This document shows, piece by piece, positions 5,671 to 56,100 of a DNA stretch of 64,000 bases (position 1 is its first letter; the number at the start of each line of letters is the position of its first letter). A program made the translations under genes and the position numbers. Below the pieces are notes generated by a model, which was not told where the DNA came from, did no database searches, and worked only from the letters and a program-made list of their open reading frames with translations. The stretch spans positions 14,658,371 through 14,722,370 of the forward strand of contig NC_092678.1 in assembly GCF_964355755.1 (NCBI RefSeq), read 5' to 3'. The DNA is from Antedon mediterranea (Eukaryota > Animalia > Echinodermata).

Positions 5671-5873
5671 GATGAATGCGGTTCCGCCGCTATCCAATCG
5701 AGTTTAAACAATACCATGAAAGCCGCAGTTGTCTATTTTTTGTTTTGTTTATGCTGGTTTATTAAAACAAAGCCATGGCAGTACAAAAGTAAATTGCGTC
5801 CAGTAACTTTAATATAACATAAATACCAAAATAAGCAAAATTTACACAAACATTCAATATAAAAATATATATA

Positions 5874-10042: not shown

Positions 10043-10127
10043 CAAAACAATACAGCAGTATATGTTTTAGAAAATAATACGCTGATGGACCAAACAGAAA
10101 AAATCAGAATATTAGAGTATTTTGACA
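10043..10127 (+). CDS. Putative upstream exon of the Roco gene (possible last, degenerate ankyrin repeat)
   Basis: ctttgtttatAG|CAA...GAC A|GTAAGT encodes QNNTAVYVLENNTLMDQTEKIRILEYFD. Its phase-1 end fits the phase-1 start of exon 20043. An in-frame ATG is at 10085. Confidence 0.55.
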
Positions 10128-31200: not shown

Positions 31201-34200
31201 ATCTGATATATTTCATTGATAGTTTAAAAATAAAACAGCTACCATTTTCTGAATTTATTATTCGAAAACTAAAGATACTTGTTCTTTCAGCAAATTAGTG
31301 TACAGTATTAGCTTTATTGCTATAGTGATTACAGCTAGACTTCTTCACTCACATATGTTGTCCATGAGGGCTAATCTACATTTCATTTATAAGCCGTTAG
31401 ATAACTGAAATAATAGTATTGTAATTATTGAAATTCAATATTCAATACAAATATTACAAATAATTACTATACAAAAGTTATACAAACATTATAAAATATT
31501 ATTGGTAAATGTCCTCAGTTATACTATGTAAAAAGTTTTTTACATAGTTTTACATTTTTCGGTGATTGCTACAAAACAAATGTTGCGTGGACTGTTATAT
31601 TTTTTAGGGCATAGGCCTACTATAAATGAAATCAGTCTTTTTTATTTTTAAGCAAATAAAAGACACATTGCTTCTAATTTTCCTATTTTTTGGTAAAATT
31701 AAAACACAGTGAAAATCACTAATTAACATAAATGAGGGATGAACGAATCCTCTGTGATCCAATATGGCTCTTGAAAATAGTGTAGCTGCTCCTGTTGAAT
31801 ACTATATCGTCCAGTAGGCCTATTATGTCTAGAGACAATAAACAGCACCTGTATTTTACTTGTCTGCTACTACCTTTCCATTGCATAGGTACTTGTGCCC
31901 TGGGTCGTCGCAAATGTAAAACCCATTCATGTCTCTGAACATGACATGATACGGGGTAATATCATTTTCCTACAATAAAGCTTGTTAATTTGATTCCCCC
32001 GTTTTTAATTTTTTGAAACATACAGTAATTCCTATTATTATTTTTTCTCGATCTGTTACAAATAATACTATACATTTTATCTTTGTGGGCATATCTAATA
32101 TACTACAGTAGTGTAAACTAGCTTCGAAAGTTAAAATTTCCACTACTTTACCAAAATACTAACATTTCTTTTTTCCCCATTTTTTTCGATCTTTTCAACC
32201 CAATTATTTTTTTGGCATTTCTTGTTATCATAACCATAAAAAAATACAAAAGAATGTACAGGGTCATCAACAAACTGTATTCCAAATTGTTTACAAACAT
32301 AACGTTTTGAAGATAAACATTCTTTTGATTTTCATTTTTGGTTGAAAATGTATTATATATTATATATAACCTGCAAACTTAATTTAAATAAGTTTCAATC
32401 GGCCTACTTGTTTTTATCTACAGCCAAAAGTATGAGCAATGTTAACCTACTGTTGCTTCTTAGTACATTTATAGCCATTTCCTTGTATAATACCAATATT
32501 CTTACAAAATCCTTTCTAATGATCCATCATTCGTTGTAATCGATAGTCTCAACCCATTGTATTGGTTCCTAACTAAACCAAATGTCAATTTATTTATTAA
32601 AACTATCTATGTATTCTAGTAAAAGTAAAAGTCTTGTTTTCGCCAGCGAAGCTTCCTTTAATATAACATTTCTGATCAGTATCTTTTACGTCACCAACTA
32701 TTAATTCTAATTTATTAGCAATAGCATTATCGGTCTCCTGCTTTTTAAAACTGGTTTTACCATGTTTGCACATCAAGAGATTATTCCTCTGTTGTTCCTT
32801 TGTTCCTTTGAAAACTGATAATTTACATATATTAAAATAACAATTAAATGCATTACATAGGGTATCAATGGAATTCCAAAACGTTTGATAAACCATCACT
32901 GCCTGAAGCCTTATTGGATTTCATTTCAAACGTGTTTTACATTCATCAATGTTTAGAATCCCTTCACATATTGCCTTGTTCTTCTGATAAGGCGCTGACT
33001 TTAGTATTATTTAGTAGGTAACTTAAAATACCTAAAATTGTGGTTCAGATCATTATAATTTATAATCATTATAATGTAACCAGATGAATCTGGAGTTTCT
33101 ATTTTGTATGGAAAAATGTATTGTATTGTTGTTTATGTTACAGGTGTTGTTGTGGCATCCAGTTCAACTACAGGTATGTTGTATTTATTATGGTATTGGT
33201 TTAGATTAAGTTAATATTAATTAAACTGTACAACTTTCTTCATTAAGCAACTAAAAGACACATTTAATTTTCTTATTATTTGAGGTAAAATCACTGATTA
33301 ACATAAATCGAGAGATGAAAAAATCCTCTGCGATCCAATCTGGCTCTTGAAAATAATAATAATAAATAATATATTTATATAGGATAAAACAATCAAATAA
33401 CAGTGTATCTGTTTTACATTGTGGTCCTGTTTTAAGCAAAATATACAAAAGAGAAACTTAATTAAATATAATACAGTGTTTATGAAAAAAAATGAGATTT
33501 ATATCTAGCCTTAAAGGAAGTAATTGTTGGTGCCGATTTAATATTAATTGGTAAACTGTTCCATATTTTTTACTAAGGGTGTATTTAGGTATTGTTACAT
33601 TCAAATGTTCTACTCCACGTGTTGAGTGGGTGTGAATATCGCGAATCAATTCAATTTCATTTACTAATCTAATTGGTGCAAGGATGTAAACACATTTATA
33701 CATTAGACATGCTAGGGAGAAATCTCGTTTCTCTTCAAGAGTTTGCCACGATAGGTTCTGGATGATGTTGTCACCCCTTACATTAATATAATCGAAGTTG
33801 TTAGTTACAATTCGAGCAGCTCTTTTTTTATGTCGCTTTAAAATATTTTTGTTTAACTCTGTCGTATTTCCCCAGACTGTTATAGCATAATCACTACAAG
33901 GCTGAATTGTACTTATATAAGAGTTTCTAGTAACGGTTTACTTAAACTACTAGCCATTTGGATCAGCATATGTTGAATTTCAATGATATATTATATAATT
34001 ATCAAAATCCATTGTTATTAACATAGTAATTATATGAAAGTGGTCAAACATAGCTACTGAAACAGAACCAAGTTTTGAATGTTGGACACAGTGGTTGATT
34101 TTGGACCCTGTTACTTGTTTTATTAACCGTCCTAATTATTGAGGAGATCCCAGATTAGGCTGTAATTAATAATAATAATACTCTTTATTTCATATTCAAA

Positions 34201-36124
34201 TGTACATATACAGCATTAAAGATACAAAGCTCTTTAACTAATATACATAATTACATAATAAAACAATACACTAATAATACAAAAGCCCATGGACCACAAA
34301 CCACCACAAATCATTATAATTACTGCCTTATTGAGATCTGTTAAAGATATTGGTCAGAGGTCGGATTCGATTGACTTGGGGATTGACTTTAGGAATAGTT
34401 ACTATGTTTCAGCTTTCCATTCGCTATTATTTATATTACTATAGTTGCTACTGATGCTGATGTTACTCCAGCTACACCAAATGAACCAACCTCAATGCCA
34501 GGTTAGTTGATTGTTTATTTTGTCCAACTCATCCAATGTTTCTAGTTTCAGTTTGAATTGTAGGCTATACAATTTTTCCTTTTTGTCTTAACATCAATAA
34601 AACAAATATCATTTAAAATGAACAGGGGTAGATCTATGATTTTTTTAAAGGAGAGCTACATATAATATTATAGTAGTTCATAATTTCATTTTTAGCTGTA
34701 AAAAGGAGGGAGCTTGCCCTAAGTACAACGCACTAGATCCACCCCTGTTAATAATTGACAATAGGGACCTACATATTTTTGTAAATTACATTAAGGCAAG
34801 GTTTACAATTGGAAGGCAATGGGTTTTGAAAAACATTCATTTTTAACTAATAACAAATATAATGTCAATACAGCCTTGTAGAATAACATCAAATAATGGT
34901 AAAACAAGCTATCGTGTTTAAAGAAAGTTATAGTAATAATAATAATATTCATACTATTAGATCAACAAACGAAATTCTCTACCAAATCACATAAAATCTG
35001 AACTTCATAATTAGTCCTTTACTACTTTCAAATCTTCACTTTGGCAAATATATATTATATATACCTAACTTTTTCTTACCTTTATCCGCATTTTTCTTTT
35101 TAATTTTTATATGTGTTACTATGTTGTATTCACTGAACCACCACTTTGTAAATCAGTAAATTTGAATTGAAAGTATATTTCAGTTTAAAGAAAGAACAAA
35201 TAAATAAATGTCAAATATCAATCATCAGGACATAAGGATATACTATATACAAAAAAGAATATTAGAATATAAAATAAATAAATCCACATAATAATGGTAC
35301 AGTTTCGACTCTTTAACACATAATGATATTATTATTAATAAAGCGTATTATTACTATTATTAGAATTGAATGATGACGATTACAATGAACTGCTCACCGA
35401 TGTATCTACTTGGTGGAAGAAACGTGGAAACATTCACATGCTGAGAGTGTTACTTAGTGAGTTCACGAATCGTGATACAACCATTACTTTGAAAAAAATA
35501 GAGAGTGAAAGTACACCATATCATCTGCTTGGTCTACTTGAGGGTCCTGGACTTCTCAAACCGGCAGACATTGGTATCCTCATTGAAGCTACTAATATAT
35601 GCGGACTTCAGGGAGTTCAAGACGTGATTGCAAAAATTGTAAAATTACAGAACTTCAAATGCATTCCATTCAAACATTTTTCTGAGCATCGAAGAAAATT
35701 GATAGCGTTTGGTCAGCAATTGAATACAGAGAACATGGTAACTATTGGCCGCCTTAAAGGCATTAAGGAGGTCAACAAATACACAGATCCGTTTTGGTTA
35801 ATCTTGAAACTGGAAATGAAAGGCACACTTGCAGAAGGAGAAAAGATGGAGAAATTCATTACACTGCTTACAGATAGAAAGATGACGAAAGAAGTGGATG
35901 CATTGACAACACTAAAAGGTGAAACAAAGCAGTATAAGCCCATTCACAAATTCAGCAGAAATGTGTTTGTAGTAGAATGGTTTGAGGGAATTGAAAACAA
36001 TTATGATAAAAGGTTATTATGATGTTATATTTATCAGCATGGATATTGTAACTACTGTACTAAAATACTTTCTTTATAGATGAACAATCAAGAAGTGAAG
36101 CTGGACCATCAAGTAATACAGAAA
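10043..36124 (+). CDS. Multi-exon Roco-family gene: (ankyrin?)-Roc-COR-linker micro-exons-tandem DED
   Basis: Exons 10043-10127, 20043-20208, 23332-23432, 23748-23816, 25007-25128, 28087-28176, 28273-28464, 28664-28906, 29193-29387, 29583-29780, 29883-30173, 30571-30648, 30749-30953, 33144-33173, 34445-34501 and 35364-35918 (or reading through to the stop at 36022), with an optional 36080-36124. All junctions are GT-AG and phase-compatible with no stops (2781 nt if ending at 36022). Confidence 0.85.
10153..10200. repeat. (TTTA)n microsatellite
   Basis: Visible tandem TTTA run. Confidence 0.9.
10660..14680 (+). mobile_element. Decayed L1/Tx1-clade LINE (ORF1 plus ORF2, endonuclease deleted), inside the Roco intron
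   Basis: ORF1 has zinc knuckles CFKCGLTGHKINEC and CHKCNMSGNFAKNC. ORF2 pieces include KSPGSDG, RPITLLNADYKI, FLDFAKVFD, GVRQGCPLS, ADD and the C-terminal CDRC..EEHMLLKC. Many stops and frameshifts; AATAAA at ~14670. Confidence 0.9.
14883..15280. repeat. (TA)n microsatellite runs with inserted repeat tails
   Basis: (TA)n at 14883-14970, ~15058-15093 and 15209-15280. 14978-15060 is the 3' tail of the 6264-6500 repeat. Confidence 0.9.
15281..16222 (-). mobile_element. Penelope-like (Neptune-type) element, 3' fragment with GIY-YIG and 3' UTR
   Basis: ORF 15672-16103 has CGKSCKTC, NVIYLIYCNICGKQYVGET..LRMRMTQH and PFGLN. Flanked on both sides by (TA)n. Confidence 0.9.
15409..15445 (-). ncRNA. 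Minimal hammerhead ribozyme motif
   Basis: Minus strand GCA-CTGATGA-A-GGGC-TAGTGTT-GCCC-GAAA-GCTC-TGC: intact core, stem I, stem II, and a palindromic AGCT before UC. Confidence 0.8.
16249..18950 (-). mobile_element. Near full-length Penelope-like (Neptune-type) retroelement, frameshifted
   Basis: ORFs 18227-18952 (SVLSKGLTFIP, ADKGGATVVW), 17824-18318 (FYMLPKIHK, RPIVS, MDVTALYTSIP), 17105-17788 (GISMGTKMGP, RYIDD) and 16661-17053 (GIY-YIG NLVYCISC..YIGET..DRFVEH). Confidence 0.93.
16325..16367 (-). ncRNA. Minimal hammerhead ribozyme motif
   Basis: Minus strand TTTTCAC-CTGATGA-T-GGGC-TAT-GCCC-GAAA-CATG-TC-GTTAAAA, ~250 nt downstream of the GIY-YIG coding region. Confidence 0.8.
19000..19450 (-). 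mobile_element. Highly decayed LINE APE-endonuclease fragment
   Basis: LVGDFNNILD motif in ORF 18943-19164; the rest is poorly conserved. Confidence 0.35.
20043..20208 (+). CDS. Roco gene exon: Roc P-loop
   Basis: acAG|AG CTA...GAA AG|GTAACT encodes VPPEIFAMG...RCMFLGKEGAGKTSCVKVMLGE. Confidence 0.9.
20567..20730 (+). mobile_element. 5' portion of Helitron-like family B (copy 2)
   Basis: Starts TCTATATATAAA and aligns with 5874-6040. Confidence 0.5.
21573..21785. repeat. Minisatellite, ~11-12 units of 17-20 bp (consensus CCCGAAGGCAAACATAAGG)
   Basis: Visible tandem units. These explain the repetitive ORFs 21424-22026 and 21459-21779. Confidence 0.85.
22232..22360 (+). mobile_element. DINE-1/Helentron-like short element (copy 2)
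   Basis: Follows a T-run, has a (GGTC/GGTT)n array, and is the inverse match of 9845-9972. Confidence 0.6.
23332..23432 (+). CDS. Roco gene exon: switch I
   Basis: attAG|A TTT...GAT G|GTGAGA encodes RFNSKEESTDGIVTTTVF...W. The phase 2 start matches the previous exon. Confidence 0.88.
23748..23816 (+). CDS. Roco gene exon: Roc insertion helix
   Basis: ttttcAG|AT GTT...AAA G|GTAGGG encodes DVELAKKIRDQALVEKVNKSLNK; phase 1-1. Confidence 0.75.
24449..24557 (+). repeat. Orphan duplicate of the 3' end of exon 23332-23432 plus its donor site and intron start
   Basis: ggaaaaagaaaacaaaagtagacGGTGAGaaatatcagaaacactc matches 23409-23454, followed by a match to 23523-23581. Confidence 0.8.
25007..25128 (+). 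CDS. Roco gene exon: switch II
   Basis: cacAG|GA CCC...CAC AGG|GTAAGT encodes SIWDYAGQLDYYITHR, matching the Roc WDFAGQxxYYxTH motif. Confidence 0.92.
25290..27581. mobile_element. Foldback-type inverted-repeat element, copy 2 (complete termini)
   Basis: Termini TAGGCTAGGCAATCTAT...GAGTGAAACAAATTGCAAACA and TGTTTGCAATTTGTTTCACTC...ATAGATTACCTAGCCTA. Arms of ~1.1-1.2 kb built from subrepeats; CAA on both flanks; no coding sequence. Confidence 0.85.
28087..28176 (+). CDS. Roco gene exon (Roc)
   Basis: ttccAG|TTT...ATA|GTGAGT encodes FFLTNRVSYCVAFNV, continuing THR-FFLT. Confidence 0.9.
28273..28464 (+). CDS. Roco gene exon: G4 motif
   Basis: ttttAG|GGT...GAG|GTAATA encodes MNLFWIRSIYEH...PPISLVATHMD. 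Confidence 0.9.
28664..28906 (+). CDS. Roco gene exon: end of Roc / start of COR
   Basis: ttttAG|GCA...GAG|GTAAAG encodes YMVDNT..EGITKLK..EVPLKWVTMQEKL. Confidence 0.9.
29193..29387 (+). CDS. Roco gene exon: COR
   Basis: attAG|GCT...GAT|GTAGGT encodes ECGISE..TYLNDIGKIMY..LRNTVITN, like the COR LHxLG motif. Confidence 0.88.
29583..29780 (+). CDS. Roco gene exon: COR
   Basis: cacAG|AAG...TCT|GTAAGC encodes W..F.NDGII..KLL.FLW and LIDVMKMFRLL. Confidence 0.88.
29883..30173 (+). CDS. Roco gene exon: COR-B
   Basis: aacAG|AGA...AAG|GTATGA encodes FLVPCKM...FLPDAVYHTLVV..VFRN. Confidence 0.88.
30215..30370 (+). mobile_element. tRNA-containing repeat, second (more decayed) copy, intronic
   Basis: Same upstream flank gttaaagagtcgcta..aatcgagtttgaacaatac. 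tRNA-like body 30260-30333 with the same ATATCAA loop. Confidence 0.7.
30571..30648 (+). CDS. Roco gene exon
   Basis: ataAG|CTT...AAG|GTAACC encodes LEIYRRTI...VCMK. Its start is conserved at 47633 in the paralogue. Confidence 0.8.
30749..30953 (+). CDS. Roco gene exon: Cys/His-rich COR C-terminus
   Basis: tgtAG|GTA...ACA G|GTAAGT encodes VLDYLRDQL...CGACDPKNHH...VPCG. Confidence 0.85.
33144..33173 (+). CDS. 30-nt phase 1-1 linker micro-exon
   Basis: ttacAG|GT GTT GTT GTG GCA TCC AGT TCA ACT ACA G|GTATGT (GVVVASSSTT). Homologues with conserved splice sites at 48243 and 49413. Confidence 0.8.
33460..33955 (-). mobile_element. CR1/L2-group LINE ORF2 3' fragment
   Basis: Minus-strand translation pieces IQP..DYAITVWG, KRAARIVT, LSWQTLEEKR..LMYKC..LAP and HTHSTR. 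Confidence 0.75.
34445..34501 (+). CDS. 57-nt phase 1-1 Thr/Pro-rich linker exon
   Basis: ctatAG|TT GCT...CCA G|GTTAGT encodes VATDADVTPATPNEPTSMP. Confidence 0.7.
34623..34747. mobile_element. 125-bp hAT-type MITE
   Basis: TIRs CAGGGGTAGATCTA / TAGATCCACCCCTG. No clean 8-bp TSD. Confidence 0.6.
35364..36022 (+). CDS. Tandem death-effector-domain-like exon (ends at donor 35918|GT or at stop 36022)
   Basis: attAG|AA TTG (phase 1). Two helical repeats, YNELLTDVS...LLGLLEGPGLL...ILIE and FSEHRRKLIAFGQQLNTENM...WLILKLEMKG, resembling the caspase-8/FADD DED pattern. Confidence 0.75.
36080..36124 (+). CDS. 45-nt phase 1-1 linker exon
   Basis: tttatAG|AT GAA CAA TCA AGA AGT GAA GCT GGA CCA TCA AGT AAT ACA GAA A|GTATGT. 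Confidence 0.6.
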
Positions 36125-36724
36125 GTATGTTTTTTATTTTTTTTTTCACTCTAACAAAAAGTGAAAATTGTGTTACAAATTCACTTTGAGTATTGTACTT
36201 ATTTAATAGCATTTGTATACGTTTTATCGATCTAATAGGGTCACAAACTGAATTGTATGTAAACATAAATACTATATTGGCCTATAATGTTTTCGTCTTT
36301 AAACGGTATAGATAAGAAAAATAAGTTGTTTCTAATAATTTAAGTGGCCTGCCATGCATACCAGCATGTATCGCATGCAAATTTATATTTTTGAACCTAA
36401 TCTATAATTGTAAAGCATTTACTGTATAGCAGTCAAATAATTATGTTTGGAACTGAAGTTTAATGAGGTGCAGTTAAGATGTATGTTCTGATGTGGTACT
36501 TTAGTGAATGATTTCAATGCCATTTTGCCAATTGTATTACAGTTTGGTTCTATAAAGTTACCAAAAAGTTACAAAAAAATTGAAAAATATATAAAATAAC
36601 AAGTTAAATCTTAATATTTTATGTTGTTGATTAGTTCTCTTTAGAAGTTTAAATAAAATGTTATAGTAATAGTATTCATCATCATGGATATTGTAATTAC
36701 TTTTCTAAAATACTTTTGTTATAG

Positions 36725-36769
36725 GTAAATGATCAAGAAGTGAAGCTGGACCATCAAGCAATGCAGAAA
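36725..36769 (+). pseudogene. Duplicate of the 45-nt linker exon with an in-frame TGA
   Basis: ttatAG|GT AAA TGA TCA AGA AGT GAA GCT GGA CCA...A|GTATGT. The upstream intron is also duplicated. Confidence 0.65.
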
Positions 36770-37337
36770 GTATGTTTTATTTCAATAGAGTTAGAGTCCT
36801 AATATTCTACTTATTTAGACTTTTATTGCAGAATTGTGTAATTTCTTGTTTACATTAATATTTTTTAATTGTGAGTTGCAGTTCTTATTTGATAGTATTG
36901 AGGCATTTTCTAGACTATTTACAGTATGGTATATATATAATTCATGGGTGAAAATACCAGGAGTGGATTGCAGTAAGGTCTTAAGCCTGGTCTTAGACTT
37001 AAGCCACAGATGAAACCCTTAGCAACGATGGTCTTAGATTAAAAATAATTGCAATATGAAGTCTAAGCCTAAGACTATCAACGATATGATCTTAGATTCT
37101 GTGCCTCCATGCGTGCCTAGCGGCGCGATGCGAGCATGCAGCCGCACGATGCGAGCGCACAGGTTAAAGTACCTAGGCCAGCAATAAACATCATGGCGAA
37201 TTTTTTAAATTGAATTATTGTTATAGTAATTTAATAAAAAAACAATTTTTCTATTTCTTTTATTTTTCAAATTTATCATAGATTTATATATATATATAAA
37301 ACCAAAAACATAGAAATTTGTATTTACTTTGTTGTAG

Positions 37338-37531
37338 AATTATCAGCCAGCAACAACAACAGTATCTGAATGGTGTGATGAACATTCCCAAAGAAATCTA
37401 AACAAAATGAAAATGGCAATCGGCGAGCTCAAGTTCAAGAGCAGGAAGACAAGATGAAAGAATTCATTAAGAAACTTGATGAAAAGAAAATAATTAATGA
37501 AGTTAATGAATTGACGAGTTTAGATAATTGA
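37338..37531 (+). pseudogene. Internally deleted, frameshifted tandem-DED exon
   Basis: Acceptor gttgtAG. VSEWCDEH..NLNKMKMAIGEL aligns to the DED1 start; DKMKEFIKKLDEKKIINEVNELTSL* aligns to EKMEKFITLLTDRKMTKEVDALTTL at the DED2 end of the 35364 exon. Confidence 0.65.
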
Positions 37532-38089
37532 TATTTCCATTCCAATTTTTTACTACTCCACTCCCAAAGACTTTTAATAAGACTTTGTGTATGTAAAGCA
37601 TCATGTGTACATGATTGTCTTATGAAACTTTGAGGGTCCCTAATGATCAGCAATTGCTAGACGGATCATCATCATTAAATATGGTTAAAAAAGTGGCATA
37701 ACGGCTATGAGCGCTCACTGGCTAAACCCAGGGGCCCCAGAGCTTATGGGGCTCCTTAACAGTGCCTAGAGGGAAAACGGGCATTCAAATATGTCGAAAA
37801 AGGCTAAAAATGTCCAGGGCCTACAGCGTTGGAGGGCCACTTATGTTTCCTAAACCAGGGGCCTTCTGCGTTATGCTTTGCTACTGCTTGCCAGGCTTTG
37901 CTATTGCTTACCTGGAGAGCCCCTCTCTCCGAAGAGAAGTTTAACATACATAACCATATCAACGCCCCCACCCCCACCCGATAATGGTATAGTCCATTCA
38001 ACATCGCACACTAATGAGACATACCTACATCAGATTGTCTTCATTTGTTTTAACACTGTTTTGTGTGTACGTCAACAAGAAACGAACTG

Positions 38090-38848
38090 AAAAAGTGGAA
38101 AACACAAAGATAACGAAGCGAAGTGTCATACTCTGTTATCACACTAGTGAAATATGTGAATTTGTACAGGCTTTGCTGTCAGTGATTCGTTGAAAGTCGA
38201 TATTTTAGGGTGTTCCCTAAAATAGAAAATAAGAGATACGTTTTAAACCGCTATTCTAGGCTAGGAGAAGACTAACTAGAATAGAAACCGATACATTCTA
38301 ATAATTCCTAAGTTAAACTACTAAGAAAACAAAGATAATAAAGCTAAGTGTCGTACTCTGTTATCACGCTAGTGAAATACGTGAATTAGTACAGACTTTG
38401 CTATCAGTGATTCGTTAAAAATCGATATTTTAGGTTGTTCCCTAAAATAGAAAGAAAGAGATACGTCTCAATCCGTTATTCTAGGCTAGAAAAAGATTAG
38501 AATAGAAACCGATACGTTTCTAAAACTCCTGAGTGGAACTACTAAGAAAACAAAGACAACAAAGCGTCAAACTCTGTTATCACGCTAGTGAAATACGGGA
38601 ATTAGTATAGGCTTTGCTATCAGTGATTCGTTGAAAATCGATATTCTAGGATGTTCCCTGAAATATAAAATAAAATATACGTTTCAAGCCGTTATTCTAG
38701 GCTAGAAGACGACTAACTAGAATAGAAACCGATACGTTCTTAGAATTTCTAAGTGGAAATACTAAGAAAACAAAGATAACAAAGCTAAGTGTCGTACTCT
38801 GTTATCACGCTAGTGAAATACGTGAATTAGTACAGGCTTTGCGATCAA
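38090..38848. repeat. ~225-bp tandem satellite, ~3.4 copies
   Basis: Anchor ctctgttatcac at 38131, 38356, 38572 and 38797. Confidence 0.9.
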
Positions 38849-39585
38849 GGATTTGTGGTTTCGTGAATATGCTGGATCAACTTCAGTATTGAATTATCTT
38901 ATGGCGGGATCTGTCCACTTATTTGTATAAAGTTATTTATAAGGAAAGTTGGCTCTGTTTTTTTTTATAAAGAGAGCCAGTTGAAATATAATGCCCTATC
39001 ATTGGGGGGAGGGGTGGTGGTGTGGTATTTTTAGAATTGGTTCAACCATTGGTATTTGATTATTTTGTGAGAAAACATCGCTGAATCATTTATATTAAGT
39101 TATAATAAGGCAAATTGCGTATTATGGATTACATTATGAATCAAACATTTACACTCTACTGATTGGTTGAAAGTTTCACATGATTAAATATATTTTAGAT
39201 TATTGTTTAACAAATAGTAAATAATATTATATAAATTACGTCACATGACTACTAATGCACATTCAGCTTTTTTTGTAATTGAAAACCAACCAGTAGAGTG
39301 CGCCATTTGTTTTGCTTAGCTGCAAAAATCCGAGCACCACATTCTTTAACTAGAGCCTTATTTTGACATTCGATTCAAGGTGGAAGTGACGAATAAATTG
39401 AATACAAATTTACTTTAGAACTGTAGGTGTGTTTAAATGTTTGATTCATAATATAAAAACAAATATACATTGGTTGCCTACTTATTTATATTGTAGATGT
39501 ATGTATCAAGATTTACTTGTCAGTATGTTTATCTTGGGTCATAGTTTGTGGAACCAAAGTACACTCAACTGCTCTACATGTTACA

Positions 39586-39621
<36 letters not shown>

Positions 39622-39938
39622 ATTTTACATATTTGATTTTGTTTATTATGTAACACAGGTTACTTTCCTTCTATTATCTCAAGTCTTATTTTTGTATTTA
39701 CCTTTTTGTTAATTTAATTTTTTTTTGTATATTTGTAAATTTGATTGGCTATAAATAAATAAGGATAACAAAGTTTTATTTTTGTAAATAAAAGTGAAAA
39801 AATGAATACATTTTGATTATGTTTTATTACGTTTTTGTATGACATATCATTATATAACTAAAACACAAAAAATTGTGAAAGAAATTAATTGATAGTTTTA
39901 CAGTTATAAAAAATTAATTATTAAATATTAATTAAATA

Positions 39939-40165
39939 CAGTTGAACCTCTTGTAAACGGCCACGGCCAATTATTTTTACTAAAAATTTGATTTTTTTGT
40001 ATGGTAAATTACCTCCACTAAGCGGACACCCAAAAAAATTGTTTTGAATTTTGACAACCAAAATACACTTTTGATACGTATTTTGCTTTATTTTGAAGCC
40101 GTTTTAAAAACATTTCCGTGAAGAACATTCCTGTGGTTTTTAGATGAGATGAGAAAACTACACTG
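39939..40165 (+). mobile_element. pogo/Tigger-like MITE, left part
   Basis: TA|CAGTTGAACCTC terminus. The body matches 61220-61395, and the reverse-complement terminus is at 61653-61664. Confidence 0.65.
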
Positions 40166-40175
40166 ATTATATATA

Positions 40176-41635
40176 CTAGATGGTACGCTCGCTTCGCTCG
40201 CGTACCATCTAGGTCGTGCCCACAGATGGTTCTCGAATACATAATAATTTCAGCGTTAAAAAAACTGGCGATTTCAAATGTACGTACCGCAGGACAATAA
40301 TACATGTCGTTTACAGGAACGAATAAATAGTCACTGTGATTTATGTACTGTAAAATTAGTACCCTGGGAATTACTTCCGAAAGAGAAACTTGTCACAAAA
40401 TGAGACCAATTGTTTAAGTCAAATTTAAACAAACTTATATTGTGTTTTGTATGTAACATTATAGGGTTGAGGGGTGGGAAAGAGGATGGGTGCAAAGAGG
40501 AACAATTTTTAAATATATTCTTTACCCATTTATTAACGAAATATTAATTGTTTTCATGTTTTACAAATAATATACCACTAAACTCAGTAGTTAAACATTG
40601 CGATTTAATACTTTGTTGAAACTATCACCGTCATAGTCAATTGAAATAGTACAGTACATGTAACGATACATCACTACGACGTACACATGTTTATATAATG
40701 TAAAACAATTTGTGAAAACCACCTCTATTCGGGGAAAATCATAAATTCGATTTAATCGTCAATAAATATTAAATTATCTAACTCAACTCAATTAGTAGGC
40801 CTAATGGTTTTACATTGTTTCTTAGAGCAAATTCTAAGTTGGTTCCTGCCCTACCCACCCCCTACCCACCAAAGTTGTTCTGCGTTTAGGGCATGTGATG
40901 TACCGTAGGCCTATCCTCTACTGGTTTTACAACGCTACTCATGCCAGTGAGGGAAGGATGATGATATGGGTGGTTTAACTTCAATAATAAATATGTGTAT
41001 ATAATATACGGCGAGTGAAAACGCTAGCTCATTATCCGTAAAAAAAAAATTTATGTCCAACCTCTGCAGCACAGATTGAAAAAAAAAATGGATCGAATTT
41101 CTCTTATGAGTATACAGTACCTGTACTTGCCTTTACGACGCCTGAGGAATAGACACTTGTGGAACAGAGATTGGAATGTCCCATTCATCGCAAATCAATA
41201 CATTTGTATAACCGTATATTAAATCTATCAAAATAGTATTTTTTAAAGAAAATTGGCCTGTCTTCAACATTATGATGCTATACTCGAGCTGTTCAACCGG
41301 TTTTCAGCCATTAAACAAAATTATCGTAGGAGGAGATAGGAAAATGCGAAGCATCCTCGTATTATTATCTGCGGGTATTTTTCAAGACGTACATCCATTA
41401 GACAGTGTATACCACGATCGAAAAACACCCCTATTTGGGTCAAATCGTTGAACCTAAATTCGTTTTAATCGTCAATAACTAATTATCGAACTCAATTTAA
41501 TTAGTAAACAGGGTTACATCAGGTGGTTAAAATCAGTACCGAAAGTACGAACCAACTTTATATACCATCGAGTAAACATTCTAGAAATAACGCGCGATTT
41601 ACCGAATTTTGCCCTTACGTAAATTTATATATAGA
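40176..41635 (-). mobile_element. Complete non-autonomous Helitron, family A (1460 bp)
   Basis: Minus strand reads A|TCTATATATAAATTTACG...hairpin...CTAG|T: 5'-TC, 3'-CTAG, A|T target, no TSD. Confidence 0.88.
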
Positions 41636-42148
41636 TATATATTACATCGATTGTATAAACTCATTTACAATATATATTATGCAAATATTGAGGCCACTTG
41701 TTATCATTATGAAAACTCACAAATAATCACATCTGATAACTTATGACAATATTGACAATGATTGGTTGAAATAATGTATATTTACAGTGTTTTTGTTTAA
41801 TTGTCATTAATTCTTCTTTTATATAATATATTTCATAATTTAATAGATATGCTTGAATTCTCTGCTTATCAACTTTTACATCTATTTATGCGAGTTGACA
41901 TTTATTTATTAAGCATAGAAGGATGCAAAGTACAAAACAGATAAACAAAAATTGAAAGGGGACACAACTAGAAGATACATCATCTTATTGAAGCTACTAT
42001 TAATATATTTCAAATCATTGGTGGCGCTGTTGAAAATAACTTTATAAAGTTATAATTATTTGCAAGTACTTTGCAATTAATCTAATAATCATTGATGCAT
42101 TCACTCTCCTGACACTAAGACAAACTTTTACATGTACACTCTTAAACC

Positions 42149-44253
42149 TACGAAAGCCTATTAGGGCCAACAAAAAAATAATATTGCTTTCACAAATTCG
42201 AAATAACGAATTATTAATTCGTTTTCTCGAATTATTAATTCATTATTTCGAATTTATTTAAGTAATTTGAAATTTCGAATTATTAATTCGAATTTTCAAA
42301 TTATTAATTCGTTATTTCGAATTAAATAATTTGACCTCTGCCCTTTCTAATGACATCCAGACCATCCCGGATTACATTAGCTCATAGGGTGCTAATGCAA
42401 TCTGGTCTTCAGACCCATTTTTTTGTGAAAGTGAATAACTATTATGTGACATTAAAATAACATATTCAACAAAACAATTAAAAAAATATTGTTTTCAGGG
42501 GGACAATATATCTTTAAATTCTTATCAAGTTTTAGTAGCCAACAGTTTTGTAATTGTTCCAGAAATAAAATACTGTTATTAAAGTTTCAATAAACAAAAT
42601 GTTGTTGTTAAATTACATCTGTTTTACTGTATTGTACAGCTACATAACACAATTCTGTCTGATCATCACCAACTTAACATAATACTATAAATATAATTGT
42701 TTATATTGTATTCATTACATGTGTTCGTTGCAATTGTTCTAACTTTGTATTGAAAATAATATCACAGCGACAATTAATTAATAACAAAAACGATTTATAA
42801 AATGATAATGTGATATCAAGTGCTTGCTGTGGCATTTGATTAGATGACGTCAAGAAACATATTTATAAGACTGCTGTATAACTGCAAACCTTCATCACAT
42901 GTTTTCGGCATTGATAGCTGCCATTCTTCCAAAAATATGGAACATAAGTCGAACACGTCCTTATCGCATGGAATCTGGCTTTTGAAGATGGATTCACTTT
43001 CACAAACTTCAACTTTAGCCACATCAACGGGAATAATACACTCTTGTCCCCCGAATAAGTATGGTACATTGTACATCAATGTCGGGCGTCCAAACGGACC
43101 ATGGCTATTTCTCGATTTTGAGATGCGATGGGCATTACACTCATTTGCAACCGTGTCCAGTTCATCCTTTAAAAAAGGCAAATATAATACAGTACAGTAA
43201 AAACAAATAGTTTAATGACAGTTTAGACCGTGAAAAAAAAACAATATCGTAAATAAAAGAGGAGTGATTTAATTATAGGCTAATATTGTTTGCTTTTCAA
43301 ATTGTTGCGAAAGCCCAAATTATTATTATAATTGTCGTACTTGTGGACTATAATGCATAGCACACAATGTAATTGCTGTATTGCTTACCTGGATAATTTC
43401 CATAAAACAACATTGTAATAAAGACTTGTCTATAAGACCTCCATCATATCTACCGTCATTCGTTAGTTATTTAAAGGCGTCTATCCAAAACTGAGTGTTT
43501 TCTGAGAATGCCCCACCAACTCTCAATTCGTTGATTATGCTGACTTGTTCCTTGTATAAAACTGCTGTTCTCATTACAAAAAAATGGTTGCATTGGATCA
43601 ACAATAGAATTTTCAGTTCCAAAATCTGTTCTAATAGACTTTGGACAACCCATTTTTTGGCGAACAGAATTTACGTGATAGCCGGCTATAACTTTTGGAT
43701 TGCTGCTAGTTAAGTAAGCTTCTAGCCATATTATGTGTCTAGAGAATCCGTATATACAGCCATTTATACAAATGCCGTATATACTGGCTTAAGTTTGTCG
43801 TACGAGATATAGTTTGGGCCAGGTACATGATAAATTCTTCTGTGTAGTCATCGTCTCCTTCTTGCTTCGACACCCTCTGGGTCAAGGAGGTTTAAAATTA
43901 TTCTGACCGTCTTTTTATCTATGTTTAACCCATTTTGTGTGCAACGAATGTGCATCCACCTGTACCCATGTAGCATCCCTGACGTCTGTAATTGGCTTTC
44001 AATGAACGCAGCGACTTCCAGTTTGTCAGAATGCCGTTTTCTTCGACTAAGGCATATTTTTTCAGCCTTCGCTTTAATGTCCGTTTACTTATCAAAATAT
44101 CATGATCTTCTGCTAACATTTCAATAATCTCTTGATAATTTAAGCTACGTTTGAAATATAATCTAATCCAATGGTTTTCAGGACGCATGGTGACCAGATT
44201 GCATTAGCACCCTATGAGCTAATGCACTCCGGGATGGTTGGGATGTCATTAGA
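42149..44253 (-). mobile_element. IS3EU-like (IS481/integrase-core) DNA transposon with a decayed, intron-containing transposase
   Basis: 62-bp inverted repeats at 42346-42407 and 44192-44253. Translation pieces ISKRTLKRRL, GYRWMH, LDPEGVEARR, PGPN, YDKLKP, GCPKSIRTDFGTEN, SQHNQRIESWW and DELD..NAHRI. Subterminal ttcgaattattaa repeats at 42195-42325; possible TAC terminus at 42149. Confidence 0.8.
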
Positions 44254-44261
44254 TCTTGATC

Positions 44262-44411
44262 TAACCGGGTTCCCATTTATACACGTGGAGAGAGGCAAAC
44301 GTAAATAAAGTATCTTGCCTAAGGATACAAGCAATGCGGCGAGATTTGGATTCGAAACTCGGTTTCACGATCAGTAGTCCAACGTCCAACACCCTGCGCC
44401 CCACGCCCTCA
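44262..44411 (-). mobile_element. tRNA-derived CORE-type SINE fragment
   Basis: Minus strand has a tRNA-like head with TTCGAATCC, then tgtatccttaggcaagatacttta...ctctctcc...tgtataaatggg (CORE-like). Confidence 0.65.
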
Positions 44412-45619
44412 CAGGAAGCAATATAATAGAATGATAATAGAAGAAAATAACTTTTAAAAAATATAATGACATATAATATTTTTTGAATTGTAATAAAAAA
44501 CATATTTTCATCCAGGTACCGGTATTACAATTAATATTAATGTCAAACAATCAGAAAACGGTATTGTAATGACACATCAATGTACAGTGGTTTTATTTCA
44601 TTGAGCTCGGTGAATCTTTAAATCCCGTTTACAGTACGTACATCATAGATGTGCATAATCATAAAAATGACCTCATATGGTATCAGTCAAAGTGAACGCG
44701 GAAATCTAATGTAATGAAGATACAAATAAAATAGGCAAACAATAAATCAAAACGACAAAGTAAAACAACCAGAAAGAAATTGCGAAGTACAAGTGAGAGT
44801 AATTGGAGAGAAGTATATACTGTAAGTAAATGGATTGGAATAAAGTAAGAGTAGAAAACAATTACGATAGCTTGGTATTTATAAACAGTAATATTATTTA
44901 ATGGTTGCAATCGTTGGGATATAATAGTAAACTATTAATTTTATTACCAACGGTTTAACTTGAGCTTTCTTATTTTCCTGTACAATATTTACATTTATAA
45001 CTATCATTGTTTAGGTTATTGTTATGAATATGTTATATTATTCATATTTACTAATTTCAATTCTGTATTATAGGCTTCTAGAATTGGCAATGAGTGTGGA
45101 ATTTCCGAAGAAGCAATCATCGTTGCCATAACGTATATGAATGACATTGGAAAGATTATGTATTCCAATAAAGACGAGAAATTAAGGAACACAGTAATAA
45201 TGAGTAACGCAACACCTTTTCCTCAAGAATACCTTCATCTTCAAGTCTTTTCCATCGCCTTTTCATTTCCATCTGTACTCAAATAAAAGTAATACTGATC
45301 ACATTTACATTAACTTATTAACGAATTACCGGGATTGTACAAAATACCAATCTAGGGTATCCTAGATAGTTTCACTTTTCTACTTTCACGCCATACAAAT
45401 GATAGAACAGACTCGCACGCTAAATGTTCATTTGTAAAATTTACCATAACAAATTAATTGACAAAATTGCCCTCCAGTGGATCAAAACAGCCTATTGTTC
45501 GGCACAGATTGCAACCACTCCCCCTCTATCTTTAAGTAGACTGGAGCAGCCGCTTAACATATTTATTTGAGGATATGTGTAGGCCTGTGTTCATAATTAA
45601 TCTGGTCGCATTTTTAGTA

Positions 45620-46929
45620 TCTATATATAAATTTACGTAAGGGCAAAATTCGATAAATCTCGGTTAATTTATAGAATTTTTACTCGATGGTATATAAAGT
45701 TGGTTCATACTTTCGGTACTGATTTTAACCATCTGACATAACCCTGTTTACTAATTAAATTGAGTTAGGTAATTAGTTATTGACGATTAAAACGAATTTA
45801 GGTTCAACGATTTGCCCCAAATAGGGGTGTTTTCCGATCGTGGTATACACTGTCTAATGGATGTCCATCTTGAAAAATACCCGCCACAAAAATGCGAGGA
45901 GGCTTCGCATTTTCCTATCTCCTCCTACGATAATTGTTTTTAATAGTTGAAAACTGATTGAACAGCTAGAGTACAGCATCATAATGTTGAAGACAGGCCG
46001 ATTTTCTAAAAAAAAATACTATTTTGATAGATTTAATATACGATTATACAAATGTATTGATTTGCGATGAATGGAACATCCCAGAGTTTGGTTTAACACA
46101 AGTAGGTAAATTTATGAGCCCTTGGTTTAACACATACGGAGGTAAATATATGGGCCCTTTGAGAATAAACTTGCAATACTTTGACAATACAGTAAATATC
46201 TATTAACTATTTTTGGTCGTCATTTGAATCGAACATTTCTTACTGTGAATGTTCATACTGTTAGATGTAATAGAAAAATATATACAAATAAACTTTATTA
46301 CTGAGATTGTGGTTAGGCTCTACTGATATATAAACACATTATTATATACAAATAAACTTTATACTGACAGTTCCTTCTCAACGTTTGTATTAATTAATAA
46401 TTACCAATAATATAAACGTCGTAGTGGTGTATCGTGACATGTACTTTGATATTTCAATCGATTATGACAGTGACAGTTTTAACAAAGTATTAAATCGCAA
46501 ATGTTTTACTTTATTTAGAGGTATATTATTTATAGGCCTATAAAACATGAACAAAATATTTCGTTACTGAGTGGATAAAGAATATATTTAAAAATTGTTC
46601 CTCTTTGTACCTATCCGCTTTCCCATCCCTCAACCCTAATGTTACATACAAAACACAAATTGGGTTTCTTTAAATGAGTCCAAATCAAAAATTTGGACTC
46701 ATTTTGTGATAAGTTTCTCCTTCGGAAGTAATTCCCAGGGTGCTAATTTTAGTTGACTACATAAATCATCGTGTCTATTTATTCGTTTCTGTAAACGACA
46801 ATGTATTATAGTCCTGCGGTACGTACATTTGAAATCGCCAGTTTTGTTACGCTGAAATTACTGTGTATTCGAGAACCATCTGTGGGCACGACCTAGATGG
46901 TACGCGAGCGAAGCGAGCGTACCATCTAG
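45620..46929 (+). mobile_element. Complete non-autonomous Helitron, family A (1310 bp), inside the pseudogene
   Basis: A|TCTATATATAAATTTACG ... CTAGATGGTACGCGAGCGAAGCGAGCGTACCATCTAG|T. Confidence 0.9.
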
Positions 46930-48606
46930 TTAATATATAATTGTCTAACATACATCTTTAATATCTGGTGGAAATAATGTGATCACAGTTGTCAACATCT
47001 GTATCATCGTGTGAAGATTAGTATTATATTGGTTAATTGATAATCGTTTAAATACAATCTCTAGCTTAAACAAAAAACTAAAATAATGTATCCTCTGTTC
47101 TATATTGTTTATAAACACTGTTTTTAATAACAGGAAGGAGACGGTTACCGTGAATTCTTGGTGCCATGTCGGATGAAAGTGTATTCAAATACTAGTCTAG
47201 AAGTGACAAAAGATGACATGCAGATGGTATCAATTTATCTGACTCCGACAGACTTTCTTCCTGAAGCTGTGTACCACACTTTAGTTGTTACATTTCTTGA
47301 ATTAATGATGGGAACAGATAGTGATGATTCACAGGTGTTCCGGAATCGTAGTGATTTTGAATTTAAAGATCACAAAATCAGTTTAGGTGCCGTTGACATC
47401 AAGCATGATAATGAAAAACCACACGCAATTAAGGTAGATCAATAATAGCATATACATAAATACTAGATTAATTATAATCTATATTATATGTATTACTTAT
47501 CATTATCGTTTCATAATGCATCTTGTACTACGCACCTATACCTACCAACTTAACATACCAAATTATCAAATGATGTTTACACATCTTTAATAAAGAAAGT
47601 AACACAAATTTACTTTTTTTATTACTTAATAGCTTCAAATATATCGTAGGACTATATATACTATACCATTCAATCTGGCTCTTAAATATAGTGTAGCTGC
47701 TCCTGTTGAAGACTATATCGTCCAGTAGGCCTATTATGTCTAGAGACAATAAACAGCACCTGCATTTTAATTGTCTGCTACTACCTTTCCATTACATTGG
47801 TTACTTTTGTAAGTGCCCTGGGTCGTCGCCATATAAATCCCATTCACGATACGGGATAATATCATTTTACTACAATAATTTATGTTAATTTTCTTCCCCC
47901 GTTTTAAATTTCTTGAAACATACAGTAATACATTATTATGAATTTTTCTCGTTTTTATTACAAATAATACTATACATTGTATCTATTTTGTTGGCACATC
48001 TAATATACTAGTTAGGAAAGTTTGTTTTCCATCACAAAATATATTGTTTTTTCCAACAATCAATGTTTTTTTTTTTTGATAAGGCGTTCACATTAGTATT
48101 ATTTAGTAATAAACTTAGGATACCTAAAATTGTGGTTTCCAATCATTATATAATCATTATAATGTAACACAAAGAATCTGGAATTATTTATTATTATTCT
48201 ATTTTATATGTAAATAGATATCGTATTGTTTATTTGTTACAGGTGTTGTTGGGGTATCTAGTTCAACTACAGGTATGTCATATTTATTATAGTATTGGTT
48301 TAGATTAAGTAAATAGTACTTAAAATGTACAACTTTCTTCAATAAGAACTCACTGTCACAAGTCAACAGAACAGGGAACTGTAATACAAGAATTTGTTGA
48401 TACGTATCAATAATTTAACAACATTGTCTGCAAATATAAAACACGTTTAGTTAATATTTACAATAATTTTGAAACTAACAGCGCCCTTTGATTACGGCAC
48501 TTATAGGAGATTGTGACGAAAACCAACGCGCACTACTGATTCGCCAAAATCATTCAAGTGAAGGTAAATTACCAGTAGATAAAGATAATAATGAAATTGT
48601 TATTGT

Positions 48607-48648
48607 CATGATGATGACGATGATGATGATGACGATGATGACGATGAC
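48607..48648. repeat. (GAT/GAC)n trinucleotide microsatellite
   Basis: atgatgatgacgatgatgatgatgacg... Confidence 0.85.
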
Positions 48649-50000
48649 AATTCAAATTTCGCAACCAAACCGTGATTTTTAATTATTTACTTAATGACCT
48701 GTTTATCAACTTCATGTAAATCAATTCTGGGAATCGTGGATGGTGGTGTCAACAACTATGCCTTCTCCAGGACATCAATGTAACTATAATAGTAACATGT
48801 ATGACCAACTATCAATATATTATAATAATATTTATGTATCACTAGCAGAAGTTTAAATTTTCTTTTGATAACACACCTTTATAGTTTGTAATCTAATATG
48901 TTATTTATTTCAATCTCTTTCTTTTTTGTTCCAGTTTGCATTTTGTTAACAATAGCAACTATCATTTTCTATAATGCAATAAATAAGATACGATAGTAAT
49001 TAAAACTGTCTTAGTAAAAGTTTACGAGAGATAATCTGAAACAAACATTTTGTGTTTAATACTAAAAAAAATATTTAATCTAATCTAATAATATTTCATT
49101 AAACAAAATGAATGAACAAAATATGAGGCCTACGCTAAGGCAAAACTGAATCTAAAACATTAGCTGTGCACGCGTTAATAATACTCACTCTCACCTTATA
49201 CACATAAATATTGTTCTACTAATAGGGCTCTACATGTTTTAAATCTTATCTTGTAAGAAAAATATGTTACGAATTGAGTTATTATTAAGGTTTAATGATG
49301 TTTTTTTTTTTTTCCTATTTTTACTTTTGCATTGATTTTACGATTTATAAATAGGCATATGTATTTTTTTTGTTATATTGATTTTTGACAATATGAATTG
49401 TATTTGTTGCAGGTGTTGTTGGATCATCAAGTTTATATCCAGGTATGTTACATTTGCGGTAATGTCTTAGATTAAGTGGATATTAATTAAAATGCACAAC
49501 GTAACTCACTGTCGCCTATGGACAGAACAAATAACTGTAAATAATGAGTGTTTTGTTTACATATAACAATTGATAACATTCTGTGCCATGTTTCATAAAT
49601 TCATATAAATTAACATATCATTTTATTACTTTTTAGGCAATAGTGAAGGAATTGAAGGCGCATCATCGAGTCACCGATTTCATCCAGGTGAATGTAACTT
49701 ACTAGTAGACCTAGATAAAGACTACAATGCAATAACTATGGTCATGATAATTAATAACACGATAATGACAAATAATTGTTAATAATCATGATATAGTTAC
49801 TCATAAAGTTGGAGTCCTATAAATTTATGCAAAATAATATAAAGTGTACATTATGAGTGTACATTATGACATGTGTTTCATTACTTAATAATATAATCAT
49901 AATCTTAAAGCAAGTGACAACAATGATTATATTCATGTTAACAATTCTACTGTATTGATTACATAATATTGTAAAATTGGTTTTTTTTTTTACCATTTAG

Positions 50001-50502
50001 ATCTTTCGGACAATGATTTTAAACAGTTAATTACAGAGTTTGCACAATGGTATGATGAACGTGGACTCCTTAACAGACTAAAAGTTCTGTTCAACAACAT
50101 GTTAAACGAATTTGAAGCGGTGAATAGAGTTACCAGTACGTTCGACCTGTTAGCACTGCTAACTAATTCTGGGCTGTTGAGTCGACAAAATCTGGCTAAA
50201 CTGTATGACACAATACAGATAACTAAACAAAATGGCTTTGAGGACATGGTTAAAAATAAGCTTTCTTTTTCCAAGGTTTTAAGACCAAAACTAAATTGTC
50301 ATTTTCACCACATACCATAAATCTGTTTAATCTGGGAAAAAGTCTCAGTGACTCAGATATGGAAACTCTTGATGGACGTTACAACTTCCCTGTTCTTAAG
50401 AAGTATGACGACAGGTGGAGTTTGATTTTGGATTTGGAATCACGAGGGTTGCTGAGTGAAGATAAAGTTGAATCGGTTGAGAAGTACTTGTTGAGAAGAT
50501 GA
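50001..50502 (+). pseudogene. Tandem DED-like terminal exon of the paralogue, with one frameshift
   Basis: catttAG|AT CTT (phase 1): DLSDNDFKQLITEFAQWYDERG...LLALLTNSGLLSRQNLAKLYD, then in the shifted frame FSPHTINLFNLGKSLSDSDM...WSLILDLESRGLL. Confidence 0.75.
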
Positions 50503-50719
50503 AAGTAAATTCAGCTGACGCTGCGGTGGTCTATATTTCCCCAATTGTGAAATCAATGTAACTATGCATAATATATACAAATAAGACTAACTTACAGTAT
50601 ATATCTGTCCTATAGCACCGTTCCTATTTATATATTTGTTGTTGTTTCTGTGATGCGATGCGGGTGTGCTGTATGTAATACCGTAATACAGGTACATTAT
50701 AATACGTAGTAGTATAGTA

Positions 50720-51270
50720 TAATAAGATTTTTAATTTGATATAATACATTCCTTTTGTATTTATGAACTTTAATACAGTTAGTACATTATTGTCTTGAAT
50801 GTGGCGATGAAACATAGACGTAATACTCCGGCACATACGATTGGTAACTCCACAGTTTCACCCGCGACATCCGCCTCTGACTTGGTGTTATGCTTTACAG
50901 GTTTAATAAGATTTTTAATTTGATATAATACATTCCTTTTGTATTTATGAACTTTAATACAGTTAGTACATTATTGTCTTGAATGTGGCGATGAAACATA
51001 GACGTAATACTCCGGCACATACGATTGGTAACTCCACAGTTTCACCCGCGACATCCGTCTCTGACTTGGTGTTATGCTTTACAGGTATAATAAGATTTTT
51101 AATTTGATATAATATATTCCTTTTGTATTTATGAACTTTAATACAGTTAGTACATTATTGTCTTGAATATGGTGATGAAACATAGACGTAATACTCCGGC
51201 ACATACGATTGGTAACTCCACAGTTTCACCCGCGACATCCGTCTCTGACTTGGTGTTATGCTTTACAGGT
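50720..51270 (+). repeat. 184-bp near-perfect tandem triplication containing L2/CR1-like RT sequence
   Basis: aataagattttt at 50721, 50905 and 51089. The unit encodes IGNSTVSPATSVSDLGV-like sequence and is followed by KSAFHALHQ.GQIR. Confidence 0.88.
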
Positions 51271-51989
51271 ATACTTGTATCTGGTAACCATTTAATAAAA
51301 ATAACAACTCTTCACAAATCAGCATTCCATGCATTGCACCAAACTGGACAGATCCGGATGTTATTAGTCCCTAAAAAACTAGTTCACTAGTCCAAATTAG
51401 ACATATAGGAACAGCTACCTATTTATTTAAAATCCAACTTATCCATAATATAACCAGTCTCAAATCCACTTAATGTATTAACATTCCCAAATGAACAATT
51501 ACATCTGCAATTGTTTAATAAAACAGTTGACGATTTGTTATTATAAAGTTTGAACTTGGAGCGTATTATCATCATAACCACTATGTTTTTAGGGAAGTGT
51601 GAGTGGGGGGTTATTTTATTTAACTGAAATTAAACAACCGTAAACGGTTAGAGTTTAAAAAGTTAACTGGCTATCGTTTATTTTATGAATTCGGATGTTT
51701 TTATCTAAAATATAATCATGATGTTCTTAACTTTTATTATTTAAATTATGTTTGTATGTTTTTACTGTACACTACATTTTTTACTAACTAATGTAGGCCT
51801 ACAATATTATATTGTATCTAACAAATTATGTAAATATGGAAGAAAATAAACTACTGGCTATGTTTTGTCATTTTACTGATACAGGTATGCAGGTGAAAAT
51901 TTATCATTTTTTTTCAGTTGTTTGATTTAATGTGCGAGTTGCCTATTCGTGATTTAGCAGCAACTAAGAAACCCTCGGCACTTTGATTG

Positions 51990-56009: not shown

Positions 56010-56048
56010 TATATAACTCTCGATTATTTTGTAATCTTTACCTCATTC
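56010..56048 (+). promoter_or_regulatory. TATA box plus initiator upstream of ORF 56101
   Basis: TATATAA at 56010-56016 and TCATTC at 56043-56048, about 30 nt apart. Confidence 0.5.
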
Positions 56049-56100
56049 TACAACGCTACAGAGCTCGACAAGACAGACCAAAAACCAACAACTAGTTACT

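Follow-up and report, generated by a model that had tools for sequence, protein, structure and literature searches.

The 64,000-nucleotide stretch of contig NC_092678.1 from Antedon mediterranea analyzed here (hereafter the window) contains closely similar COR exons followed by strongly dissimilar effector exons, raising the question whether effector exons are swapped, added, or lost independently of the GTPase core. An initial annotation had answered in the affirmative, describing two paralogues with three divergent DED exons behind symmetric micro-exons as interchangeable cassettes of a receptor family, a label that domain content makes plausible. In our analysis the central claim held, since COR and effector trees turned out incongruent (AU p 1e-56 to 4e-4). 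The inventory had to be revised: only one effector exon (type A) is intact, the other two being broken within the window. The coordinates of all features are compiled below. Labels for effector types (A, B, R) and ROCO clades are our own. The closest proteins to the window genes are uncharacterized Antedon mediterranea gene models, and 28 further named matches all belong to Antedon mediterranea or Anneissia japonica.

Table 1. Features of genes A and B in the window (position 1 is its first letter; tDED, tandem DED).
Feature	Position	Strand	Remark
Ankyrin-cap exon, likely of gene A	10043..10127	+	phase 0 to 1, AG/GT bounded, open frame
Gene A Roc GTPase exons (six)	20043-20208, 23332-23432, 23748-23816, 25007-25128, 28087-28176, 28273-28464	+	
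Gene A COR exons (six)	28664-28906, 29193-29387, 29583-29780, 29883-30173, 30571-30648, 30749-30953	+	
m30, 30-nt phase 1-1 linker exon	33144..33173	+	native to the COR subfamily of gene A
Intron part with likely graft breakpoint	33253..34444	.	high-copy repeat fragments inside
m57, 57-nt phase 1-1 linker exon, first exon of the probably grafted tail	34445..34501	+	
tDED exon, type A, intact, 555 nt, phase 1-1	35364..35918	+	encodes a tandem DED pair
m45a, 45-nt phase 1-1 linker	36080..36124	+	spliced in run X1
m45b, 45-nt linker, tandem duplicate of m45a	36725..36769	+	in-frame TGA ends the gene A frame
tDED remnant, type R, 3' terminal exon	37338..37530	+	deleted and frameshifted
Gene B COR exon 2, head	45074-45200	+	tblastn and profile matches
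Gene B inverted COR pieces	45204-45275, 46951-47034	-	tblastn and profile matches
Gene B COR exon 4; exon 5 stub (COR remains 45074..47670)	47134-47433; from 47633	+	
Gene B linkers m30a, m30b, m51	48243-48272, 49413-49442, 49637-49687	+	AG/GT bounded
Gene B terminal tDED exon, type B	50001..50502	+	frameshifted near 50270-50300

Gene A is a ROCO GTPase gene of the (ankyrin)-Roc-COR type, continued by frame-neutral phase 1-1 exons. Roc is directly followed by COR, and the motifs GKEGAGKT, WDYAG, and THMD (P-loop, WDxAG, and THxD) lie in an open frame with COR, from which GTP binding, hydrolysis, and dimerization are predicted. The Roc part matches the ankyrin-ROCOs P0005, P0014, and P0016 at 63-66%, the COR exons match clade-1 ROCOs at 54-63%. 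Searched as single exons against Pfam, the latter gave COR-A at E 2.9e-6 and COR-B at E 0.011 (both below cut-off), and close full-length relatives (57-66% identical) carry Pfam Roc and COR-A. An uninterrupted frame of 880 codons extends from Roc through the tDED exon and closes at the TGA in m45b, which had been taken for a plain linker. Upstream, the ankyrin-cap exon shares 12-13 identities in 24-28 aa with the same three ankyrin-ROCOs; it likely belongs to gene A and would be joined to the first Roc exon by a putative splice. Just beyond a large repeat, an ankyrin-like exon start (1592-1630) runs into a stop after eight codons; it may represent a dead exon upstream in gene A, for which no true 5' end was located.

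Behind the core, the exon structure corresponded closely to the initial annotation, as the linker exons (30, 57, 45, 45, 30, 30, and 51 nt) and the 555-nt exon are all preceded by AG, followed by GT, and divisible by three in length. AG likewise precedes the other exons named there. Phase 1 applies to the start of the first Roc exon and to the end of the last COR exon (205 nt), with the COR introns being of phase 0; every gene A exon from m30 to m45b is of phase 1-1, and the chain continues so up to 37338. Symmetric exons of this kind go by the term "class 1-1 module". The generalization that every exon after COR starts in phase 1 therefore stands for gene A, whereas in gene B the linker phase is inferred from homology because its last COR exon is gone. 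The 30-nt micro-exon is indeed common to both genes (27/30 nt), and 8/9 aa of m30 recur in the peptide after COR in P0008/P0010. The following exons lead elsewhere: m57 matches, in 8/8 aa, the stretch of P0003 that directly precedes a tDED of type A, and m45a is identical in 14/14 aa to the stretch after the tDED of P0001, which also has an m45b-like repeat. m45a was also found in the clade-3 protein P0095. Between m45a and m45b, 39/45 nt agree, with the flanks being duplicated too.

Splicing of this tail was observed in one sequencing run. None of the runs is recorded as RNA; X1 was treated as such since GT..AG joints occur in X1 alone, the three other runs being DNA-like and derived from one sample. 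X1 contigs joined m30 to m57, m57 to the tDED exon, this to m45a, and m45a to m45b across four predicted introns at a depth of 36-46; the remnant was entered at 37338 by a contig that ran gapless to 37633 (depth 36). This RNA-like run thus splices m30-m57-tDED-m45-m45-terminal exon; the shown splicing starts at m30, and the COR-to-m30 splice is predicted. Some 25 unplaced letters lie further upstream on the contig carrying m30, and the 30-nt match could stem from a paralogue. X1 also contained one more m45-to-m45 joint and a second remnant with a different deletion. No tail splice joints were detected in the three DNA-like runs of the one sample.

The exons described as DED exons each represent a complete tandem-DED module, and the reading as single DEDs had to be abandoned. 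The structural model of the 555-nt exon (pLDDT 94.9) shows 12 helices, predicted to form two six-helix death folds packed together. Structural alignment with VIA-align, on which the fold assignment rests, placed it on the caspase-8 tDED with Z 16.4 and rmsd 3.0 over 168/184 residues, all top nine rows being tDEDs (Z 12.2-16.4); all Foldseek rows for the same model are likewise tDEDs, with E above 0.001 throughout. A profile built from eight modules matches cFLIP at E 0.006. The Pfam DED model finds no match in the gene A exon and one at E 0.012 in the gene B exon, and many homologues pass the curated cut-off. The modules of caspase-8, cFLIP, and vFLIP have the same two-DED fold and arrangement as the gene A module, which, however, is only 13-16% identical to them, is fused to Roc-COR, and has predicted binding and filament properties.

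Gene B, initially counted as a paralogue, is a wrecked pseudogene fragment. Within the window it lacks a Roc exon as well as the last COR exon (exon 6), and an inversion with interruption affects the COR exon 2/3 region, where the exon 2 tail and the exon 3 start lie on the minus strand. The COR remains match P0006 and P0008-P0011 at 87-98%, and m30b matches P0051 in 7/9 aa. Its tDED exon carries an apparent frameshift in the assembly sequence and matches the intact tDED after COR in P0051 at 84-86% and that of P0093 at 62%. Since type B thus stands intact after COR in P0051 and P0093, both of the gene A COR clade, gene B likely displays the native tDED state. A repeat lying inside the gene B inversion (45204-47034) has further copies at approximately 103-1566, 4114-5676, and 40166-41637.

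Comparison of the two genes confirmed a discrepancy between core and effector. The COR identity had been estimated at roughly 70% and was determined as 73% on the protein and 79% on the DNA level over 138 codons (dS 0.67, dN 0.17, pS 0.44), and the flanking introns are alignable as stated, at 76-83%. The tDED exons share 28-30% of their amino acids with a dN of 0.76, a pS of 0.86, and saturated dS, and their DNA similarity is not above that of shuffles, in agreement with the scattered residues reported before. Saturation of the synonymous sites implies that fast protein evolution alone is insufficient. Consequently, the idea that the tDED exons are orthologous slots evolving merely faster than COR, which could draw on the high dN, is refuted by this saturation (pS 0.86 vs 0.44 for COR), the 84-91% conservation of each type within Antedon mediterranea, and the rejection of an A+B clade.

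The proposed comparison of separate COR and DED trees gave a clear incongruence. By its COR, gene A groups with gene B and P0006-P0011 (100/98), far from P0001; by its tDED, it groups with P0001 (91% identity to the C-terminal pair), P0002, P0003, and P0004 (99/99), even though the CORs of gene A and P0001 are only 22% identical. AU tests rejected a clade of the A, B, and P0007 tDEDs (p 1e-56), of the A and B tDEDs (p 3e-5), and of all clade-1-linked tDEDs (p 4e-4), as well as a union of the A and P0001 CORs (p 9e-8). The incongruence was repeated in a larger protein set. Trees were calculated under LG+G4 without a mixture model, contain long branches, and are unrooted, so reliance was placed on starred shallow clades and AU tests. 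The nearest relatives of both gene A tDED exons reside on clade-2 ROCOs (P0001 and P0002 for the intact exon, P0064 for the remnant), while its COR neighbours P0051 and P0093 carry type B. Relatives were compared at the level of protein gene models, whose exon phases and domain fusions are putative.

In total, 459 pairs were scored. COR and tDED occur together in 33 of 165 proteins, of which 29 with a tDED after COR were retained (after removal of two duplicates from clusters and of two proteins whose tDEDs are all N-terminal) and supplemented with genes A and B. COR identity reached at least 70% in 29 pairs; within these, the tDEDs were at most 40% identical in 17 and at least 60% identical in 11. 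The latter indicate that tDEDs mostly travel with their own COR over short times. The rank correlation between COR and tDED identity was 0.10; the pairs are not independent. In eight of the 17 discordant pairs, a tDED type of the second slot is involved, so that loss of a first slot could account for them; P0017 carries both. The same module thus appears on distant cores and at other positions with discordant trees, as is characteristic of exon shuffling.

The exon at 37338 is a real third tDED type, as had been suspected, but a dead one: approximately 190 of some 560 nt are retained, deleted and frameshifted, and no DED product is encoded. It is 60% identical to the intact tDED of the clade-2 ROCO P0064, forms a starred clade with it, and ends in the same C-terminal residues. 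P0064 and P0001 are themselves 82% identical in COR and 41% in their tDEDs. The possibility left by the initial annotation that the gene B exon is merely the counterpart of this exon was rejected (remnant+B clade, p-AU 1.6e-6). Descent from a decayed copy of the gene A tDED was likewise dismissed, with a DNA score of 29 against a shuffle maximum of 33 and a protein identity of 33% compared with the 60% to P0064. In the clade-3 protein P0095, three m45 linkers, another tDED type, and another m45 precede a short out-of-frame end that matches a remnant variant from run X1. On this account, the linker together with the dead terminal exon is an old and itself mobile 3' end. Given that the COR neighbours of gene A carry type B, both tDED exons of its tail look imported.

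These data are best explained by a graft. We consider it probable that gene A received its 3' tail from a different ROCO subfamily, through recombination in the germline or a segmental duplication within the intron after m30. Homology between genes A and B ends at 33252/48350, 79 nt past m30, and repeat fragments follow. The breakpoint would accordingly lie inside 33253-34444, and the moved tail would comprise m57, the tDED exon, the two 45-nt linkers, and the dead terminal exon, with non-allelic germline recombination or segmental duplication as the simplest reading. Retroposition of the tail was excluded, as the introns are retained. Because phase-1 introns separate the last COR exon, the linkers, and the tDED exon from one another, any tail attached at such an intron would be expected to keep the frame. 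In general terms, tDED types would move between Roc-COR cores, be added, or remain as dead exons. The direction of transfer follows from parsimony only, because the trees are unrooted.

In functional terms, by analogy to known ROCO and DED proteins, the encoded protein may act as an ankyrin-sensing, GTP-switched dimer. Its tDED would nucleate DED-DED assemblies, with caspase-8-like proteins or other tDED proteins as partners, and exchanging the tail would then alter the partner downstream. This is plausible since the same module occurs on crinoid NACHT, TIR, caspase-8-like, RIG-I-like, and Rel proteins. A competing interpretation accepts the graft mechanism and disputes the function only, regarding the chimera as a neutral by-product of shuffling in a birth-and-death cluster, with gene A being transcribed yet decaying and without a rewired role. 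It is a possibility to be taken seriously, although we lean against it. Gene A may be decaying, considering the stop in m45b, the dead terminal exon, and the stop in the upstream ankyrin-like exon, and the inversion, insertions, deletion, and frameshift of gene B fit such a cluster. Nevertheless, the 880 open codons with preserved GTPase motifs, the COR dN/dS between A and B (0.17/0.67), and the spliced tail speak against it, and the dead terminal exon, being old and present in P0095 too, is no sign of recent decay.

The discordance might instead descend from a fixed multi-tDED ancestor through differential loss, with gene conversion keeping type A alike across subfamilies. Several models do contain two to five tDED pairs (P0017, P0021, P0025), and gene A itself has two serial tDED exons. 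This history is nonetheless unlikely: loss alone cannot yield 91% tDED identity across 22% identical CORs, and type A precedes Roc in P0001 and P0002, while gene A and P0001 have it C-terminally. Moreover, P0003 shows the order R-linker-A, the reverse of the order in the window, and no B-type trace was found in gene A and no A-type trace in gene B.

Transport of the tail as cargo of a DNA transposon (Helitron or Pack-type) also appears improbable. It would be compatible with the retained introns, with the high-copy repeats on both flanks (summed contig depth is high at 33289-33959), and with the summed contig depth over the tail, introns included, which amounts to several to approximately 20 times that of single-copy pieces and suggests that the tDED exon and its introns are multi-copy, this being a hint and not a copy number. 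However, the tail is not enclosed by any convincing pair of long repeats, inverted or direct, and the depth along it is uneven, with 647-777 on the tDED exon as against 91 on the remnant in X2, in disagreement with one fixed-end unit.

The proposed graft is also to be distinguished from cassette switching. There is no indication of a programmed or somatic process: no signal-like repeat pair of VLR- or V(D)J-like switching was detected, and no exon-swapping joints in the three DNA-like runs, which represent one sample and whose contigs drop rare variants. As no switching mechanism was seen, the cassettes can be called interchangeable only over evolutionary time, and the pattern looks like germline exon shuffling instead.

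Shuffling of death-fold effectors is as a general phenomenon already known from invertebrate NLRs and RLRs. According to the available portion of a sponge and metazoan survey, the effector domain type of invertebrate NLRs is discordant with the phylogeny of the NTPase core, for which domain shuffling, gain, and loss are proposed and repeated loss is the stated alternative (PMC3879445). Compared with what is described there, the core is a Roc-COR GTPase, and the module, a tandem DED in one phase 1-1 exon, is found on both sides of Roc-COR across the ROCOs compared. Lophotrochozoan RIG-I-like receptors, as described in the accessible part of the report, gain or lose a DED or death exon between sibling paralogues with the frame unchanged; there the core is a helicase, the grafts are N-terminal, over half of the instances are ascribed to exonization or pseudoexonization, and that part of the text describes no multi-exon tail common to distant clades (PMC8998645). 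Phase-compatible shuffling is reported in the consulted section on clam IAPs (PMC7831173). For brown-algal LRR-ROCOs, the portion seen describes an expanded family with symmetric exon shuffling and a proposed immune role, based on 72-nt phase-2 LRR sensor exons and alternative splicing (PMC11378527), whereas in the crinoid ROCOs it is effector and linker exons of phase 1 that move, with ankyrins in place of LRRs. Trichoplax ROCOs combine Roc-COR with CARD and death domains in a lineage-specific expansion with kinase-free listed architectures; the excerpt available mentions neither a tandem DED nor signs of swapping from exons or trees (PMC4104024).

A literature search of mainly openly accessible main texts returned no paper on crinoid ROCO-tDED genes; our data point to a large family of them. 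The present case of effector shuffling is unusually clean and datable: the tail is roughly as close to its Antedon mediterranea counterpart (91%) as the gene B COR exons are to theirs (87-98%), yet it is attached to a core of only 22% identity. Should the tDED type determine which partner is bound, this family would allow a direct test of whether shuffling rewires immune signalling. A scan with the tDED profile yielded 141 new matches, 23 of them with NACHT; in crinoids the module was also seen on six TIR proteins and on one caspase-8-like, one RIG-I-like, and one Rel protein. Speculatively, and with considerable doubt on our side, the crinoid tDED could be a standard single-exon phase 1-1 plug for ROCO, NLR, RIG-I, TIR, Rel, and caspase-8-like proteins, the types acting as a pairing code and ongoing swaps, possibly still polymorphic among individuals, rewiring the links from sensor to death or signalling pathway. 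If true, kinase-free ROCOs would join the large classes of intracellular immune receptors in animals as a third.

Two further models extend the range of architectures. In P0133 (XP_071945975.1) of Antedon mediterranea, a TAZ zinc finger and a KIX domain precede Roc-COR-tDED, which suggests that CBP/p300-like exons were captured at the N-terminal slot or that the model is a fusion. The Anneissia caspase-8-like protein P0043 (XP_033126911.1) carries two tDED pairs, the second of which is approximately 39-42% identical to type B and close types.

The remaining window hosts several other elements. An acidic open frame of 264 codons at 56035-56829 gave no significant Pfam match. Near-perfect tandem repeats lie downstream of gene A (38101-38856, approximately 222 nt) and downstream of gene B (50717-51273, three copies of approximately 184 nt). 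Between both genes, an element at 42346-44253 with 62-nt terminal inverted repeats (94%) contains an integrase-core fragment (Pfam rva_4, E 4e-15). Finally, two tRNA-Asp(ATC)-like calls at 6310-6381 and 30259-30334 fall into an 83% identical repeat of very high depth, which is likely a tRNA-derived SINE.
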